A DNA stretch of 64,000 nucleotides from Candidatus Parcubacteria bacterium (lineage in GTDB: Bacteria > Patescibacteriota > Minisyncoccia > SURF-38): positions 1,432 through 65,431 of the forward strand of contig QZJN01000014.1 of assembly GCA_003599335.1 (NCBI GenBank), read 5' to 3'. The position numbers were made by a program, and so were the translations under genes. Shown piece by piece: positions 16,076 to 60,520 of the stretch (position 1 is the stretch's first letter; the number at the start of each line of letters is the position of its first letter). The notes under the pieces were generated by a model. It was not told the DNA's origin, did no database searches, and was given only the letters and a program-made list of their open reading frames with translations.

Positions 16076-16084
16076 AACCAAAAA

Positions 16085-16120
16085 CAACATTCCAACATTC
16101 TGCAGAATGTTGGAATGTTG
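16085..16120. repeat. Perfect 36-bp palindrome CAACATTCCAACATTCTGCAGAATGTTGGAATGTTG (PstI-site centre)
   Basis: Read directly from the sequence. It lies between the PKD gene stop and the arsR start. Confidence 0.8.
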
Positions 16121-16144
16121 TGGGGAGTGTGATATACAGGAGGT

Positions 16145-16411
16145 ATGAAAACGGCTAAACAGTTGGAGAGATATTGTAAAGGCGCGGCAAACCACCGGCG
16201 CATCGCGATCTTATCTGTTGTTGAAAAAGAGAGCGGGATTACGCTTGAGGAAATTGCGGAGCGGCTGAGCGCCAACCTTAAAACTATCTCTCAGCATACC
16301 CGATCGTTGGTTCAGGCGGGGCTTTTGAGTAAAAAGTATCAAGGGCGCGCAGTGACTCATCAACTCTCGCCCTACGGAAGGGCTTTTGTCAGATTTCTAA
16401 AATCATTCTAA
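16145..16411 (+). CDS. ArsR/SmtB-family transcriptional regulator
   Basis: 88 aa; ANHRRIAILSVV...ITLEEIAERLSANLKTISQHTRSLVQAGLL is a typical ArsR winged-HTH. Confidence 0.7.
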   Translation: MKTAKQLERYCKGAANHRRIAILSVVEKESGITLEEIAERLSANLKTISQHTRSLVQAGLLSKKYQGRAVTHQLSPYGRAFVRFLKSF

Positions 16412-16434
16412 CATTCTGCAGAATGTTAGAATGA
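16403..16434. repeat. Perfect 32-bp palindrome TCATTCTAACATTCTGCAGAATGTTAGAATGA, overlapping the arsR stop
   Basis: Shares the 18-bp core AACATTCTGCAGAATGTT with 16085-16120. Confidence 0.8.
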
Positions 16435-16540
16435 TGTGGGGGTGGGGTGTGTGGGAGTTGGGGTGTGTGAGGGGATGGGCGCGAAGGTGTGTGGAGGTGT
16501 GAGAGAGTGGGTTGGTGGTGAAGGTTTGATTTTGATTGTG
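16435..16540 (+). repeat. GT-only low-complexity tract with many GGG/GGGG runs (G-quadruplex-prone)
   Basis: About 100 nt composed almost exclusively of G and T, of the form (GGGTGTGTG)n. Confidence 0.7.
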
Positions 16541-16615
16541 CAAAAGGCGTACAATACGGACATTGAAATACTTATTTAAATACGTATTTAACAAATGATT
16601 TATTACTTATAATGT

Positions 16616-16789
16616 ATGCGAAGAAAATTGAAGGAGAAAAATATACGAAAACTCGCCCGGATGGGCAACCGGAGTCTAGGATTAACCTTGCCGGTGGAGA
16701 TGGTTAATAAGCTAGGTTGGCGTGAAAAGCAGAAGGTGCTTTTGAGAATGAAAGGTAAACAGATAATCGTTAAAGATTGGAAGGGATAA
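16616..16789 (+). CDS. AbrB/SpoVT (MazE-like) swapped-hairpin DNA-binding protein, 57 aa
   Basis: Below the ORF-track cutoff. RKLARMGNRSLGLTLPVEMVNKLGWREKQKVLL fits the SpoVT/AbrB domain. The stop lies 3 nt before the next ORF, and a TATAAT box ends 2 nt before the ATG, so the transcript may be leaderless. Confidence 0.5.
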   Translation: MRRKLKEKNIRKLARMGNRSLGLTLPVEMVNKLGWREKQKVLLRMKGKQIIVKDWKG

Positions 16790-16792
16790 CTC

Positions 16793-17485
16793 ATGATTAC
16801 AAAAATCAAAAAATCTAATGACGCGACAGCTTATCTAAAAACTTCTGTTAATAAAATATTAAATTATTTACGGAAGATAGTTAGTAATAAAAAATTTAAT
16901 TATAGAACTTTCGGCACTAGTATAGAAGAACATCTTACCGATATTTTGGTTAAGTTATTTACGGAGGGTGGTTTTATAGAAAATAATAAAGATTACGTTG
17001 TTGCGCTCAATAAAAATTATTTCCCAGATTTTGAATTAAAAACCACGCCTCCACTTGCTATTGAGTTTAAATCTGGTAATAAGAGTCAGTATAGAAAGGA
17101 GAAGTGGGTTGTTGTTAAAAACAGCGAGAACGATATGGGAACATTAAATGAATGGCCACAAAAAATTAAGAAATTTGGCGGGGATAACATTTATTATATT
17201 TTCGTTATTTATAATTTTAATGATCAAACTGAAGAGGTTTTAAATGTTGAAATAGCTCCATTCTACCAATTTATAGGATTGAATAAGGGAAAGGTGCTTA
17301 AATATAGAGAGAAAGATGGCAACTTGAGGCCAAAAGATTTTGAATCTAATTCTCCTATAAAGACCTTAAAACAATTTGAAGATTTATTGAATAAAACTGT
17401 AATTTATAGATCTAAACGAGTAATCAAAAAACACCGTTCGATTATTAAAAAAGTTGCTCAAACTTCTAAAAAAGAGTTGGGCTAA
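16793..17485 (+). CDS. Putative PD-(D/E)xK nuclease (candidate Type II restriction endonuclease)
   Basis: 230 aa. Motif E(EEHLTD)...FPD-x12-EFK fits a PD-(D/E)xK catalytic core. The gene is convergent with, and overlaps by 20 nt, the DNA methyltransferase gene. Confidence 0.45.
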   Translation: MITKIKKSNDATAYLKTSVNKILNYLRKIVSNKKFNYRTFGTSIEEHLTDILVKLFTEGGFIENNKDYVVALNKNYFPDFELKTTPPLAIEFKSGNKSQYRKEKWVVVKNSENDMGTLNEWPQKIKKFGGDNIYYIFVIYNFNDQTEEVLNVEIAPFYQFIGLNKGKVLKYREKDGNLRPKDFESNSPIKTLKQFEDLLNKTVIYRSKRVIKKHRSIIKKVAQTSKKELG

Positions 17486-19028
17486 CTAATTTTTTATTTT
17501 GTTTTTTATTGTAGTTGAATTTAGGGTTGTCTATAGGATAAATGCCCTCATCTTCGGATATAGTTAAGTTCCTTAAATACTTTGAGGCAGTTTCGGGAGT
17601 ATTGCCGTTATATTTATAACCATTACTTGAACGATAATTTACTTTATCAAGTTTATTTGCGACGATTTTTTTATATTTTGGATCTATATCAATACCAATA
17701 TAATTTCGTCCGAGGCGTTTTGCGGCAAGCGCAGTTGTCCCTGCTCCAATGAATGGATCTAACACTACATCCCTTTCATCTGTAGTCATGAGTATCAATC
17801 GTTCCAATAAAGGTTCTGGGAGTTGGCATGGATGAGCGTCTCTCCGAGCGTTATGCCGAATGCGGTGTATATCTGCCCACACATCGCTTAAAAGTGTTCC
17901 ATGAGGGTGTATTTGGTTTTTCTTCCCCCCATAATCTTTAATCATTTCTCCGCAGATCCTGCATTTTTTGTGAGGTGATCTTAATTCATGAAATTTAAAT
18001 CCTTTCTGAGTTTTTGTATAAAATAAGATGCCATAATGTGCGGGTAATAGCGTTTTTCCAAGAGGCGTGCTCATTGAATCCCAAGCAATCCAGTGTTTAA
18101 ACACAGCAATTTTGTTAAGATGGTTAGCATAGTAGGTCAACCATTTTGGTATATTATGAATAAAGATTGAGCCTGTTGGTTTAGTTATTCTAACCATTTC
18201 GGTTAGCCACAACTCACACCATTTTATATAATCATCAGTTGTTTTTTTGTCTTTATAATTTCCATACTTTTTATTTAAGTTGAATGGCGGGTCTGCAAAT
18301 GTCATATCCACCGAGTTATCAGGGATCTTTTTCATTTCACTAATAGAATCTCCGCACAGGATTTCGTTCAGAGGAAGTTTTTTGTATTGTTTAATATCGT
18401 GTTTAATTTCTGGCAAAATGATAGGAGTTGTAAATTCATCTCGGATAACATCAATGACTATCCCTTGGATAGAAATATCCTTATCTTTTTTTATGATGAT
18501 TGGCTCCATGCTTTTGTTTGCCGGTTGTAATCTGATATGGCCGCGCTCTTTATAGAATTTCTTTAGGGTTGCTTCCTGATTGTCTATGAGGGCGACAACT
18601 TTTTGGCCGTTTTCGGCTGTGGCTTGATGTTTTACTAAAATAATATCTCCATCATTAATATTTTCATCAACCATGCTATTGCCAATCACTTTTAAAGCGT
18701 AAATCTCTCCGGAAGAGGGGAGTTTGTTTTTTGGCACGGCAATAGTTTCTTTTTCTTGAACCGCCTCTATGGGTTCGCCAGCCGCGATAGTGCCAAGGAG
18801 TGGAATTTTAACCATCGACTCCGTTTCAGTAATATCTATTGCCCTGTGTTGATTCCAGCCTCGTTTTAAATATCCCTTTGCTTGTAGCTTTGATATATGT
18901 TCATGAATATTTGAGGGGGAGGATAAACCGAAGTGGTCGGCTATCTCTTCAAGAGAGGGAGCGTACTGGTGCTTTTTTATGTATTTTTGGACGTAGTCCA
19001 AAACTTGTTTCTGACGTTTGGTAAGCAT
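17466..19028 (-). CDS. LexA-like repressor (HTH + S24 autopeptidase) fused to a beta-class DNA methyltransferase (N6A/N4C)
   Basis: The N-terminus MLTKRQKQVLDYV...LEEIADHFGLSSPSNIHEHISKLQAKGYL matches the LexA DNA-binding domain. The AAGEP Ala-Gly cleavage site, GNSM Ser and ATLKKF Lys define an intact S24 domain. After a linker come the MTase motifs IV (DMTFADPPFN) and I (VVLDPFIGAGTTALAA) in beta-class order. The track start at 19049 is GTG; ATG 19028 matches the LexA N-terminus. Confidence 0.65.
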   Translation of the reverse strand: MLTKRQKQVLDYVQKYIKKHQYAPSLEEIADHFGLSSPSNIHEHISKLQAKGYLKRGWNQHRAIDITETESMVKIPLLGTIAAGEPIEAVQEKETIAVPKNKLPSSGEIYALKVIGNSMVDENINDGDIILVKHQATAENGQKVVALIDNQEATLKKFYKERGHIRLQPANKSMEPIIIKKDKDISIQGIVIDVIRDEFTTPIILPEIKHDIKQYKKLPLNEILCGDSISEMKKIPDNSVDMTFADPPFNLNKKYGNYKDKKTTDDYIKWCELWLTEMVRITKPTGSIFIHNIPKWLTYYANHLNKIAVFKHWIAWDSMSTPLGKTLLPAHYGILFYTKTQKGFKFHELRSPHKKCRICGEMIKDYGGKKNQIHPHGTLLSDVWADIHRIRHNARRDAHPCQLPEPLLERLILMTTDERDVVLDPFIGAGTTALAAKRLGRNYIGIDIDPKYKKIVANKLDKVNYRSSNGYKYNGNTPETASKYLRNLTISEDEGIYPIDNPKFNYNKKQNKKLVSPTLF

Positions 19029-19037
19029 GCTTTTATT

Positions 19038-19071
19038 ATAACTTAACACCCGAAAGAAAACCGAAAGTTAT
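19038..19071. promoter_or_regulatory. Candidate operator: inverted repeat ATAACTT-N20-AAGTTAT enclosing direct repeats CCGAAAG x2, overlapping the -10 of the lexA-MTase gene
   Basis: Read from the sequence immediately upstream of ATG 19028 on the minus strand. A TATAAT box (reverse complement) lies ~6 nt before the ATG. Confidence 0.35.
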
Positions 19072-19121
19072 CCACACAAGAAATCATTGTTTGGCGTGCT
19101 GAAAAGTAGTATAATATAGGT

Positions 19122-19208
19122 AATTAAATAATGGTTAAAAGGGGCGCTCGCCCCGACTGAGGACCTACGAAGTAGATTTAAAGCCGGGGCAACCCCGGCT
19201 TGTTTATT
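19122..19208 (+). ncRNA. Candidate small RNA or terminated leader (~87 nt)
   Basis: Promoter TTGTTT(19087)-17-TATAAT(19110), then hairpin GGGGCGCTCGCCCC and a terminator AGCCGGGG-CAA-CCCCGGCT + TGTTTATT (19182-19208). No ORF is present. Confidence 0.35.
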
Positions 19209-19283: not shown

Positions 19284-20621
19284 GTGGCCACACAAAATCC
19301 ATTCGAAATATTAAGGGAGCTAAGGGGTATAGAATGGCCAACCAAGACTGGCTGGGTTATTTATTCTTTTGCAATTTTTCTTTTATCCTGGTTGATCATT
19401 ATGCTTCTTAAGCAAATCGGTATTGCATTGGGACCGTTGTTGGTGGGATGGATTTTGGGTGGCTTGCAGGTTGCCCATTTTATCGCGTGGGTTATGAAGA
19501 GAAATTTTTTTTATGATCCAGATGTTTTAACAATTGCTTTTGCGGTCGCCACAGAAGAAGCTTCACGCAGCTATTATAAAGAAATAAAGAAAAAGTTTCG
19601 AGAACAAATTACTGCTCATAAGCTGCAAGATGATATAAAAGTAAAAGAATTGCCAACCGATGTTAACTTTACTGATGCAAAATCAGCCGAGGCCTTTATT
19701 TTAAAAAGAGGAATAAGGCTTCTGGTGTGGGGTAATACAACAGAAGGAAATGTTGTAAATATTCCATTTTCTCAATTTAATATTCAAATATCCTATCAAT
19801 ACAGAGCTCTTAGTAAAGTAAGACAGGAAGAGTTTAAAAAAGACATTAGAACTGCAATCCAACGAAGAATGTGGGGAGTTCGTCAGTCAGAATCCTTTTT
19901 ACATCTCGCCGTTGTTTCTGGAAATATCCTGGAAATTAGTTTATATACACTTGGGGCATGCCTTGCGACAATACCGCGAGTAGATTATTTGTTAAGGTCT
20001 ATAGATATATTTGAAAACCTCCAGAATTTGCTTAAAGAGCGTAAACAAGATCTAAATTTTCCCAACCTCCAAGCTGTTAAACAAAAAACACGTTCTTTAC
20101 TTCGTGACGCCTATACCTTTTTAGTATCTTACTACATGGACTCTAAAGATTTAGATGGGGCAACTAGATATGCTGGTAAGGCGATAGAAATTGACGAGAA
20201 TAATTTTATTGCTCATCAAAACATGGCCAGACTCCAATGGGTTAAAGGCAATAAGGATCAGGCAAGCTTTCATACAAAAAGAGCATGGCATATTAGGCCT
20301 GGACATCCACTCCCAAGATTTAACAAGGCTTTTTTTCTTATTATTAATAGAAATTATGAACAGGCTTTAAAGCAGTACAAAAAAATTCGATATGTAGGAG
20401 ATACTAGTATAGTCGATGTTATAGAGTTTTTAGAAAGCGAATTTGATAAAGCTAAAGATAATTTGGGTCTTTTATTTATACCTGGATGGTTAAATATCCA
20501 GTATGCTGATCAAGTTAGGGGAGTTGCGCAACTCGAAAAGTTTCTAAAACTAGCAAACAATGATTCTATATATTCAGTGCTTATAGCAGAAGCCAGTAAG
20601 ATTCTTTCTTCTAGAAACTAG
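19284..20621 (+). CDS. Hypothetical membrane-anchored protein with a TPR-like C-terminal region
   Basis: 445 aa with a GTG start. Two N-terminal TM helices; no recognised catalytic motif. Confidence 0.5.
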   Translation: MATQNPFEILRELRGIEWPTKTGWVIYSFAIFLLSWLIIMLLKQIGIALGPLLVGWILGGLQVAHFIAWVMKRNFFYDPDVLTIAFAVATEEASRSYYKEIKKKFREQITAHKLQDDIKVKELPTDVNFTDAKSAEAFILKRGIRLLVWGNTTEGNVVNIPFSQFNIQISYQYRALSKVRQEEFKKDIRTAIQRRMWGVRQSESFLHLAVVSGNILEISLYTLGACLATIPRVDYLLRSIDIFENLQNLLKERKQDLNFPNLQAVKQKTRSLLRDAYTFLVSYYMDSKDLDGATRYAGKAIEIDENNFIAHQNMARLQWVKGNKDQASFHTKRAWHIRPGHPLPRFNKAFFLIINRNYEQALKQYKKIRYVGDTSIVDVIEFLESEFDKAKDNLGLLFIPGWLNIQYADQVRGVAQLEKFLKLANNDSIYSVLIAEASKILSSRN

Positions 20622-20661: not shown

Positions 20662-20783
20662 TTTGATACTTATTTAAATACGGGTTTCCCGCAACCTTTC
20701 AATGAGATTAGGATAGCCGTTTATTTGTTTTACAGCGCTTGAGGTTTCATAACGGTTCGACAAGCTCACCATAAAATGGTTTA

Positions 20784-59779: not shown

Positions 59780-60520
59780 CTAAAAATCAAGTAATTTTGT
59801 AGCAAACATCAGCAAAACCCCAAAAAGAAAAACTCCAAAAGATTTAATTGATTTTTTTAAATCTTCCTCTTTTCTGATTTCTGGTATTAGATCGGAGGTT
59901 GAAATGTATATAAAACTCCCGGCCGCAAAAGCCAAAAGATACGGCAACGCGCTTTCAAGTTCCGTTGCCAAAAAATATCCGGCCACGCCTCCCAAGATTG
60001 CCGTTAGGGCAACCATAAAATTTGCCCATAAAGCTTTGTATTTACTAAAACCGGAATACAAAAGTACTCCATAATCGCTTATCTCTTGTGGTATTTCATG
60101 AAGCGCGACAGCAAGACTCGTGGCTAAGCCCAGTTTTATGTCAACCAAAAAAGCCGCCGCGATAATAACTCCATCTATAAAATTATGTATTGCGTCTCCG
60201 GCAAGATTGAGATATCCAAAAGCATGAATGTCACAATGTCCTTTATGGCAATGATGCCAATGCAAAACTTTTTCTATAAAAAAGAAAAGGATAAATGATA
60301 AAAGGGTTATCGTAAAAACGGCAGAACCGCTAAGGCCTTCAAGGGCTTCCGGCATCAGATGCAAAAATGCTCCTCCGAGCAATGCTCCCGCCGAAAGAGC
60401 GACTAAAAAAATAAGTATTTTTGACAGCCGTTCTTCCTGTAGCCTTAGGGTAAAGATTCCGATAAGAGAACCAAGGCTAACAATAAAAGTGGCCAGTAAA
60501 ATTATAAATAAAATTCCCAT
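59780..60520 (-). CDS. ZIP-family metal (Zn/Fe) permease
   Basis: His-rich loop HHCHKGHCDIH and the ZIP signature LAVALHEIPQE. Confidence 0.75.
   Translation of the reverse strand: MGILFIILLATFIVSLGSLIGIFTLRLQEERLSKILIFLVALSAGALLGGAFLHLMPEALEGLSGSAVFTITLLSFILFFFIEKVLHWHHCHKGHCDIHAFGYLNLAGDAIHNFIDGVIIAAAFLVDIKLGLATSLAVALHEIPQEISDYGVLLYSGFSKYKALWANFMVALTAILGGVAGYFLATELESALPYLLAFAAGSFIYISTSDLIPEIRKEEDLKKSIKSFGVFLFGVLLMFATKLLDF

Follow-up and report, generated by a model that had tools for sequence, protein, structure and literature searches.

A predicted AbrB-fold regulator in the controller position of an EcoRV-like restriction-modification cassette from a Candidatus Parcubacteria bacterium

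The DNA analysed here, 64,000 nucleotides (nt) of Candidatus Parcubacteria contig QZJN01000014.1 (positions 1,432-65,431, forward strand; hereafter the window), contains a Type II restriction-modification (R-M) cassette in which a small gene for an AbrB-type protein, abrB57, directly precedes the gene for a nuclease, R, and a methyltransferase (MTase) gene, M, converges on R from the opposite strand. The abrB57 gene is an open reading frame (ORF) of 57 amino acids (aa) at 16616-16789 (+), with its stop codon TAA at 16787-16789, and R is a 230-aa ORF at 16793-17485 (+), leaving a gap of 3 nt (ctc) between the stop of the one and the start of the other. M, at 17466-19028 (-), encodes a fusion of a LexA winged helix-turn-helix (wHTH), an S24 peptidase and a beta-class N6_N4 MTase with a DPPF motif, 520 aa long when read from ATG 19028, and overlaps R by 20 nt (17466-17485). 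An earlier sequence-only reading of this stretch had described both the 3-nt spacing of the two ORFs and the convergence on a LexA-MTase gene with a 20-nt overlap, and the coordinates agree with it on both points. The cassette family is widespread in Patescibacteria, and for comparison about 125 related loci, labelled here with L-numbers, were gathered from collections of genomes and metagenomes. As an R-M system the cassette is ordinary; what sets it apart is a variation in its regulatory architecture.

In R, residues E45, F77-P78-D79 and E91-F92-K93 form an E...PD...(D/E)xK motif. An alignment of 44 diverse R homologs shows E45, P78, D79 and K93 to be invariant and E91 nearly so; a block reading YREKDGNLRP is likewise invariant in these homologs. 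The catalytic core had previously been written as E...FPD-x12-EFK, of which the motif stands and the spacer does not, 11 residues rather than 12 lying between D and E. The 269 R homologs found come nearly all from Patescibacteria metagenomes, and an N6_N4 MTase gene converges on R in almost every related locus with enough flanking sequence. Searches with the R sequence and with a profile against PDB, Pfam, NCBIfam, PADLOC and plasmids gave no match, and the identity of R therefore rests on fold comparison and on profile alignment with hhalign. The AlphaFold2 (AF2) model of R (pLDDT 92.7, pTM 0.86) carries the expected helix-strand-strand-strand (alpha-beta-beta-beta) core, in which the motif residues belong to the helix spanning 40-58 and the strands 80-82 and 88-96. 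When this model was compared with the PDB by Foldseek, as the sequence-only reading had proposed for restriction-endonuclease folds in general, the top matches were SwaI (2.4e-6), NlaIV (1.5e-5), EcoRV (2.2e-5) and HincII (4e-5), all blunt-cutting Type II restriction endonucleases, with E-values from 2e-6 to 1e-4; among the 52 matches with E <= 1e-3, the best 50 all belong to SwaI, NlaIV, EcoRV or HincII. Template-modelling (TM) scores of these matches are about 0.5-0.6 (maximum 0.60) at a Foldseek probability of 1.00. Against the EcoRV sequence, hhalign places SIEEH, NYFPDFEL and LAIEFK of R opposite IFELF, NHYPDFTL and IAIDIK, and pairs E45, D79, E91 and K93 of R with E45, D74, D90 and K92 of EcoRV.

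From motif and model together, R is identified as an EcoRV-like PD-(D/E)xK Type II restriction endonuclease, with E45, D79, E91 and K93 as candidate catalytic residues; the conserved motif, the EcoRV-like fold and the pairing with an MTase bear out the proposal that the 230-aa ORF is a restriction enzyme of this superfamily. R resembles the EcoRV, SwaI, NlaIV and HincII branch in fold, in its aligned catalytic residues and in size (about 230-245 aa), but no PDB chain or Pfam family is significantly similar to it in sequence. Its family, labelled 'hypothetical protein' in public records and without a Pfam family, thus adds a clade to the EcoRV-like endonucleases. It also differs from EcoRV in its partner, since M.EcoRV is a Dam-like alpha-class enzyme whereas the MTase of the window is beta-class and fused to LexA. 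Counts of 6-bp palindromes in the window and 83 non-redundant related loci (about 546 kb) offer a hint that the system may recognise GATATC: the EcoRV site is the scarcest of them relative to expectation, with 135 observed and 199 expected (observed/expected (O/E) 0.68, z -4.5), and it ranks third in under-representation in the window alone. TACGTA, the core of an operator type described below, was also considered as a recognition site and rejected, as it is not avoided (O/E 1.18).

The product of abrB57 matches PF04014 (MazE_antitoxin, AbrB/SpoVT fold) over residues 16-53 with 28.7 bits (cut-off 24.7, E 1.3e-6). Its AF2 model (pLDDT 77) has a beta-beta-alpha-beta-beta topology, and the best PDB matches of that model in Foldseek are AbrB-N, MazE, VapB and SpoVT. 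A score above the gathering cut-off and these structural matches sustain the AbrB/MazE fold given to this ORF in the sequence-only reading, which was mistaken in calling it unannotated: its NCBI name is 'AbrB/MazE/SpoVT family DNA-binding domain-containing protein'. Judged by sequence and model, AbrB57 is a minimal AbrB-fold (swapped-hairpin) DNA-binding protein without a C-terminal extension. A profile search returned 2,538 proteins of about 57-60 aa, with 50-73% identity, from many lineages of the candidate phyla radiation (CPR), and on account of these homologs we regard abrB57 as a real gene. The subfamily has the signature NIRKL...S..(T)LP.E....L.W...QK......G....I.DW, and since the N-terminal NIRKL strand is conserved, a start codon farther downstream is unlikely. 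The swapped-hairpin fold is common to AbrB, MazE, VapB and SpoVT, to Sso7c4 and to C56 and C68 of the pSSV plasmids; Sso7c4 and C68 are also like AbrB57 in their domain-only size, and probably autoregulatory repeats upstream of the gene are a further likeness to this group. Compared with AbrB, MazE, VapB and SpoVT, AbrB57 lacks a toxin partner or C-terminal domain and belongs to a distinct, highly conserved CPR subfamily.

The position directly upstream of R is filled differently from one related cassette to another. In about 25 loci it holds a 73-aa HTH_3 protein, that is, an Xre-type controller (C) protein, whose gene runs into the R start (ATGA) or stops 2 nt short of it; textbook C-boxes such as ATCCCATTTTGGGATTATACCACAATAGGATAT, inverted repeats 20-50 nt upstream of the C gene, accompany these proteins and covary with them. 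A C-box copy near the M promoter of the Xre-C cassettes, as in Esp1396I, was sought and none was found. The slot is empty of any regulator in many related loci, contains an ArsR-like gene in L015, L018, L065 and L066, and contains a PDDEXK_5-domain gene in L083 and L127-L130, which belong to another branch of the nuclease family; in L127 (2406-2996) this gene encodes 196 aa and ends 4 nt ahead of R. An AbrB-type gene fills it in three cases, the window (3-nt gap), L123 (24-nt gap) and L107 (4-nt gap), and within about 480 kb of related DNA two of the three other AbrB57-like genes lie directly upstream of the nuclease. The AbrB-type gene of L123 is an intact 63-aa ORF; L061 is the same sequence as L123, and an in-frame stop in its AbrB gene was dismissed as a contig-end error, the longer contig L123 having the intact ORF. 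With Xre-type C proteins and C-boxes at this place in some 25 sister cassettes, the earlier suggestion that an AbrB-type gene holds the slot of a C protein is well founded.

A consensus scan gives one candidate sigma-70-like promoter for the abrB-R operon, TTGATT-18-TACAAT at 16526-16555 (+), which has 9 of 12 matches and is a pattern only. A palindrome search found two tandem 12-bp units, AAATACTTATTT and AAATACGTATTT, at 16566-16589 (+), the probable operator of AbrB57, and degenerate units run on from them with a 12-nt period to 16613. With the promoter at 16526-16555, the operator array would fall in the first stretch to be transcribed, a position typical of repressor sites. The sequence-only reading had seen a -10 box abutting the abrB57 ATG and had suggested a leaderless transcript. 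The hexamer is present (TATAAT at 16608-16613 (+), 2 nt upstream of the ATG and overlapping a degenerate operator unit), but leaderless genes have about 7 nt between the -10 box and the ATG, and a transcript that begins at the ATG would need more than 2 nt. We therefore do not retain a leaderless abrB57 transcript: a better-placed promoter-like site lies at 16526-16555, and the canonical leaderless geometry occurs at the M gene instead. Between 16616 and 16793 on the + strand the same scan found no promoter-like site, and a Shine-Dalgarno-like sequence for R, GGAAGGGA at 16779-16786 (+), lies within the last abrB codons, 6 nt before the ATG at 16793; R is for these reasons most likely expressed from the abrB transcript.

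Arrays of this kind go with the AbrB57 family. All family members examined have a repeat array with an 11-12-nt period within about 50 nt upstream of the ATG, of differing types: TACGTA three times in L123, TACTGAATTAA-type repeats in L133-L142 and TAAGTAG-type repeats in L120 and L131. The tandem AAATACNTATTT units, of which the window has two, also occur upstream of the homologs in L121 and L122, where they abut the ATG. The window has a single occurrence of the exact 24-mer AAATACNTATTTAAATACNTATTT, and a search of 133 loci found it nowhere but immediately ahead of the L121 homolog. The operator 24-mer has another strong copy in the window, TGATACTTATTTAAATACGGGTTT at 20664-20687 (+), which has 4 mismatches to 16566-16589 and stands directly after the terminator of a TPR gene; a match as good as this one arose in 0.5% of simulated 64-kb sequences (P about 0.005). 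In L123 the 24-nt TACGTAA-repeat block upstream of abrB recurs with 1 mismatch upstream of M, about 170-190 nt from it and in equivalent orientation (the blocks are mutually inverted). By analogy with Esp1396I, the duplicated block of L123 would allow co-regulation of abrB-R and M. Two further matches in the window were set aside, an exact 12-mer operator match at 60409, which falls within a ZIP transporter gene and was taken as chance, and a 16-nt match between the upstream regions of abrB and M, which reaches chance level (5 of 20 shuffles) and is not relied on.

M combines LexA_DNA_bind (PF01726), Peptidase_S24 (PF00717) and N6_N4_Mtase domains in Pfam, and it matches TIGR00498 (lexA) of NCBIfam at 203 bits (cut-off 111). 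Read from the sequence, its LexA part keeps the Ala-Gly cleavage site (IAAGEP), the serine (GNSM) and the lysine (TLKKF). M is thus a beta-class MTase, probably of the N6-adenine kind, fused to a complete LexA repressor. A natural fusion of LexA with an MTase was sought in the searchable literature, and no published description was found. M.SsoII, M.EcoRII, M.MspI and M.Ecl18kI resemble M in having an N-terminal DNA-binding domain and repeats that overlap their own promoter, and M differs from MTases of the M.SsoII type in carrying a complete LexA (wHTH, Ala-Gly site, S24 Ser/Lys), so that RecA-stimulated self-cleavage could inactivate the fused module.

The reading frame of M stays open up to GTG 19049 (-), giving a 527-aa ORF (17466-19049). 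The start is probably ATG 19028, since the 520-aa form is on public record and the promoter is conserved: GTG 19049 falls inside it. This conserved M promoter at 19035-19076 (-) consists of the DnaA-box consensus TGTGGATAA, the direct repeats CTTTCGGTTTT and CTTTCGG, and then TATAAT, which ends 6 nt ahead of ATG 19028 (-), the canonical geometry of a leaderless mRNA (19026-19040). The exact DnaA-box consensus TTATCCACA has only two sites in the 64-kb window; of 37 unique regions upstream of LexA-MTase genes, 33 have it in one orientation or the other, and the M promoters of L008, L017, L073, L078 and about 30 others carry it. Beside it lie direct repeats with a period of about 11 nt, e.g. CTTTCGGTTTTCTTTCGG or GTTCGGTAAATGTTCGGTATAAT, which overlap the -35 element and the spacer and covary between loci. 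LexA-type repeats CTTTCGGTTTTCTTTCGG were also sought upstream of abrB and of R and were found only at the M promoter; there is thus no sign that LexA-M represses R directly.

Where nucleases are at least about 55% identical and the flanks suffice, R nearly always faces a convergent LexA-MTase fusion whose MTase part is 75-89% identical; in cassettes farther removed the MTase domains are separate. In one of these, L117 (3741-7090), an Xre-type C gene and R converge on the gene for a 582-aa MTase, which has a lexA gene of its own (219 aa) in front of it. From this arrangement we infer that the family was ancestrally a two-regulator one (C-R convergent with lexA-M) and that the LexA-MTase fusion is derived. 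The two-regulator R-M system proposed in the sequence-only reading therefore has its counterpart in distant members, which carry C-R convergent with a lexA-M operon.

These observations bring us to lean, if only slightly, towards a regulatory explanation in which AbrB57 is the dedicated controller of R, filling the position, and probably doing the job, of the 73-aa Xre-type C protein of the sister cassettes. R would lack a promoter of its own, sharing the abrB57 transcript and being coupled to abrB57 in translation. AbrB57 would bind the tandem AAATACNTATTT array between the predicted promoter and its own start codon, and the output of this autoregulated promoter would set the level of R, most likely by a negative feedback that caps R expression, because the operator lies downstream of the -10 box. 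M would be controlled separately, its own LexA domain probably acting at the conserved repeat-containing promoter; a plausible further step, judged from the sequence of M, is that damage by R to the host chromosome would generate activated RecA (RecA*), which would induce self-cleavage of LexA-M and so derepress M.

The likeness to C-controlled convergent Type II R-M systems (Esp1396I, and PvuII, AhdI and EcoRV with Xre-type C proteins) is that a small co-oriented DNA-binding gene stands directly upstream of R; systems of the Esp1396I type further share with the window the repeated operators upstream of the regulator start and the convergent M. C proteins have been described as helix-turn-helix activator/repressors, and some MTases autoregulate through N-terminal helix-turn-helix domains (PMC3874152). 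AbrB57, in contrast to C proteins, has the AbrB swapped hairpin rather than an Xre-type helix-turn-helix, its predicted operator is a tandem 12-bp array common to stand-alone relatives, its family is not specific to R-M systems, and an activation-based delay is not evident. To our knowledge, all characterised R-M controller proteins are of the Xre helix-turn-helix type, and no published report of an AbrB-fold C protein or controller was found in the searchable literature. A bolder generalisation, which we put forward tentatively and with more doubt than conviction, is that AbrB57-type proteins form an unrecognised class of controllers outside the helix-turn-helix group, which would repeatedly have displaced Xre-type C proteins in Patescibacteria before EcoRV-like and MmeI-like genes and act through tandem 12-bp operators, possibly at both cassette ends, alongside an SOS-responsive LexA-fused MTase. 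The MmeI-like case is that of L121 (202-882) and L122 (140-580), where 94 nt separate the gene for a 65-aa AbrB57 homolog (66% identity) from a downstream gene whose product has the N-terminal (endonuclease) domain of MmeI (E 5.5e-31); both contigs end within this downstream gene.

A number of findings weigh against a dedicated controller. The closest placed homologs of AbrB57 (70-73% identity) stand alone in non-R-M contexts, and in just one, L121/L122, of the nine contexts to which AbrB similarity led does a restriction gene follow; the stand-alone homologs adjoin genes for an LMWPc phosphatase, DUF3175, NUDIX and ZIP proteins, a Mur ligase and an ADP-ribosyl toxin. As a large and mostly stand-alone family whose closest members lie beside unrelated genes of a housekeeping type, AbrB57 proteins are not an R-M-specific family. 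The AbrB copy of L107 has no canonical start codon. The nucleases linked to AbrB in the window, L123 and L107 are only 55-68% identical to each other and are polyphyletic, their nearest relatives having no regulator or an Xre-type C protein, so that the AbrB-R pairing must have arisen at least three times. In all three lineages the GC content at third codon positions (GC3) of the AbrB gene is 0.47-0.50, against 0.19-0.35 for the adjacent R; the step is sharp, across 3-24 nt, whereas the GC3 of Xre-type C genes tracks that of R within about 0.1, and the pairing would accordingly be recent and could be incidental. A weak copy of the operator junction, TTATTTAATTACCTATAT at 19114-19131 (-), overlaps a second promoter-like site upstream of M, and this operator-like site is no better than chance. 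Finally, C proteins delay the expression of R, which an autoregulator acting by repression alone would not do.

Much of this would also be expected if abrB57 and R were neighbours by accident, that is, if a resident, autoregulated Patescibacteria regulator had had a regulator-less R-M cassette land or recombine behind it, with R expressed by read-through and AbrB57 having no evolved role in its control. The varied contexts of the stand-alone family members at 50-73% identity, an operator array that is a family feature and is present at stand-alone genes too, the break in GC3 at the abrB-R junction, and the polyphyly of the AbrB-linked nucleases, together with the many cassettes that work without an upstream regulator, all fit such a history. 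Random insertion would, however, rarely be expected to yield the same order in three independent lineages, two of them with a spacing of 3-4 nt, nor does it account for the duplication of the abrB operator block upstream of M in L123, for the AbrB57 homolog that also precedes an MmeI-type enzyme, or for the operator copies that bracket the low-GC R-M-TPR segment of the window. We consider accidental adjacency unlikely, though it is the most serious of the alternatives.

The low-GC segment just mentioned holds abrB, R, M and the gene for a 445-aa protein with transmembrane and TPR regions (19284-20621); GC content is 0.29-0.39 inside it and 0.42-0.54 outside, and a 17-nt perfect direct repeat, ATACTTATTTAAATACG at 16568-16584 and 20666-20682, brackets it exactly. 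The AAATAC-type repeats at 16566-16589 and 20664-20687 might accordingly be att-like recombination scars, and not, or not only, operators, that bound a 4.1-kb mobile islet of abrB-R-M-TPR. Repeat blocks at both ends of abrB-R-M in L123 and one and the same hairpin at both cassette ends in L045 point the same way. Set against this, the segment contains no integrase or transposase, related arrays also precede family members that stand alone, with no sign of an islet there, abrB is unlike R, M and the TPR gene in composition, and the blocks of L123 are inverted rather than direct; we think such scars improbable. Least probable by far is that AbrB57 is a proteic antitoxin of the MazE or VapB sort that inhibits the nuclease directly, which would superimpose a toxin-antitoxin pair on the R-M system, for although Pfam places it in the MazE antitoxin family, JGI labels its homologs 'antitoxin component of MazEF' and the tight abrB-R coupling resembles toxin-antitoxin operons, its 57 aa are the DNA-binding domain only, without the C-terminal tail that AbrB-fold antitoxins use on toxins, downstream genes differ among the homologs with no conserved partner, and most nuclease homologs have no AbrB57 and rely on the MTase; for want of a tail and a conserved partner, AbrB57 would act as an autoregulated DNA-binding protein rather than as a classical antitoxin.

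Other features were noted around the cassette. Upstream of abrB57 lies a gene for an 88-aa ArsR/SmtB-type wHTH protein (ORF 16145-16411), and at each end of it stands a perfect palindrome of 34-38 bp (16084-16121 and 16402-16435). The two palindromes are near-identical, share the core AACATTCTGCAGAATGTT and could be operators, terminators or a small mobile module. The GT-rich spacer between this gene and the abrB promoter contains, at 16438-16463 (+), the sole G-quadruplex-type motif (at least four runs of three or more G) of the 64-kb window, and in L015, too, the ArsR-like gene is followed by a G-rich spacer of similar kind. An alignment of the intergenic DNA from the ArsR-like gene to R in the window, L015 and L018 gave no convincing homology. 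In L045 the hairpin AAACCAAAACACCCTCCGAAATTCGnGGGGTGTTTT occurs twice, about 90-115 nt ahead of the C gene and likewise ahead of the M gene, which suggests cassette-end terminators or an insertion signature.

Patescibacteria are poorly studied, and gene regulation in them is almost unexplored. If AbrB57-type proteins do control R-M cassettes in this group, a recipient cell's own near-identical AbrB57 might silence an incoming cassette until methylation is complete. The fusion of LexA to a methyltransferase suggests a damage-sensing safety loop for R-M systems. Homologous cassettes in which one and the same slot is empty or holds an Xre-type C protein, an AbrB-fold protein or an ArsR-like protein form a natural comparative series, from which one could learn what degree of control a restriction gene requires and how one regulator comes to replace another in the course of horizontal transfer.

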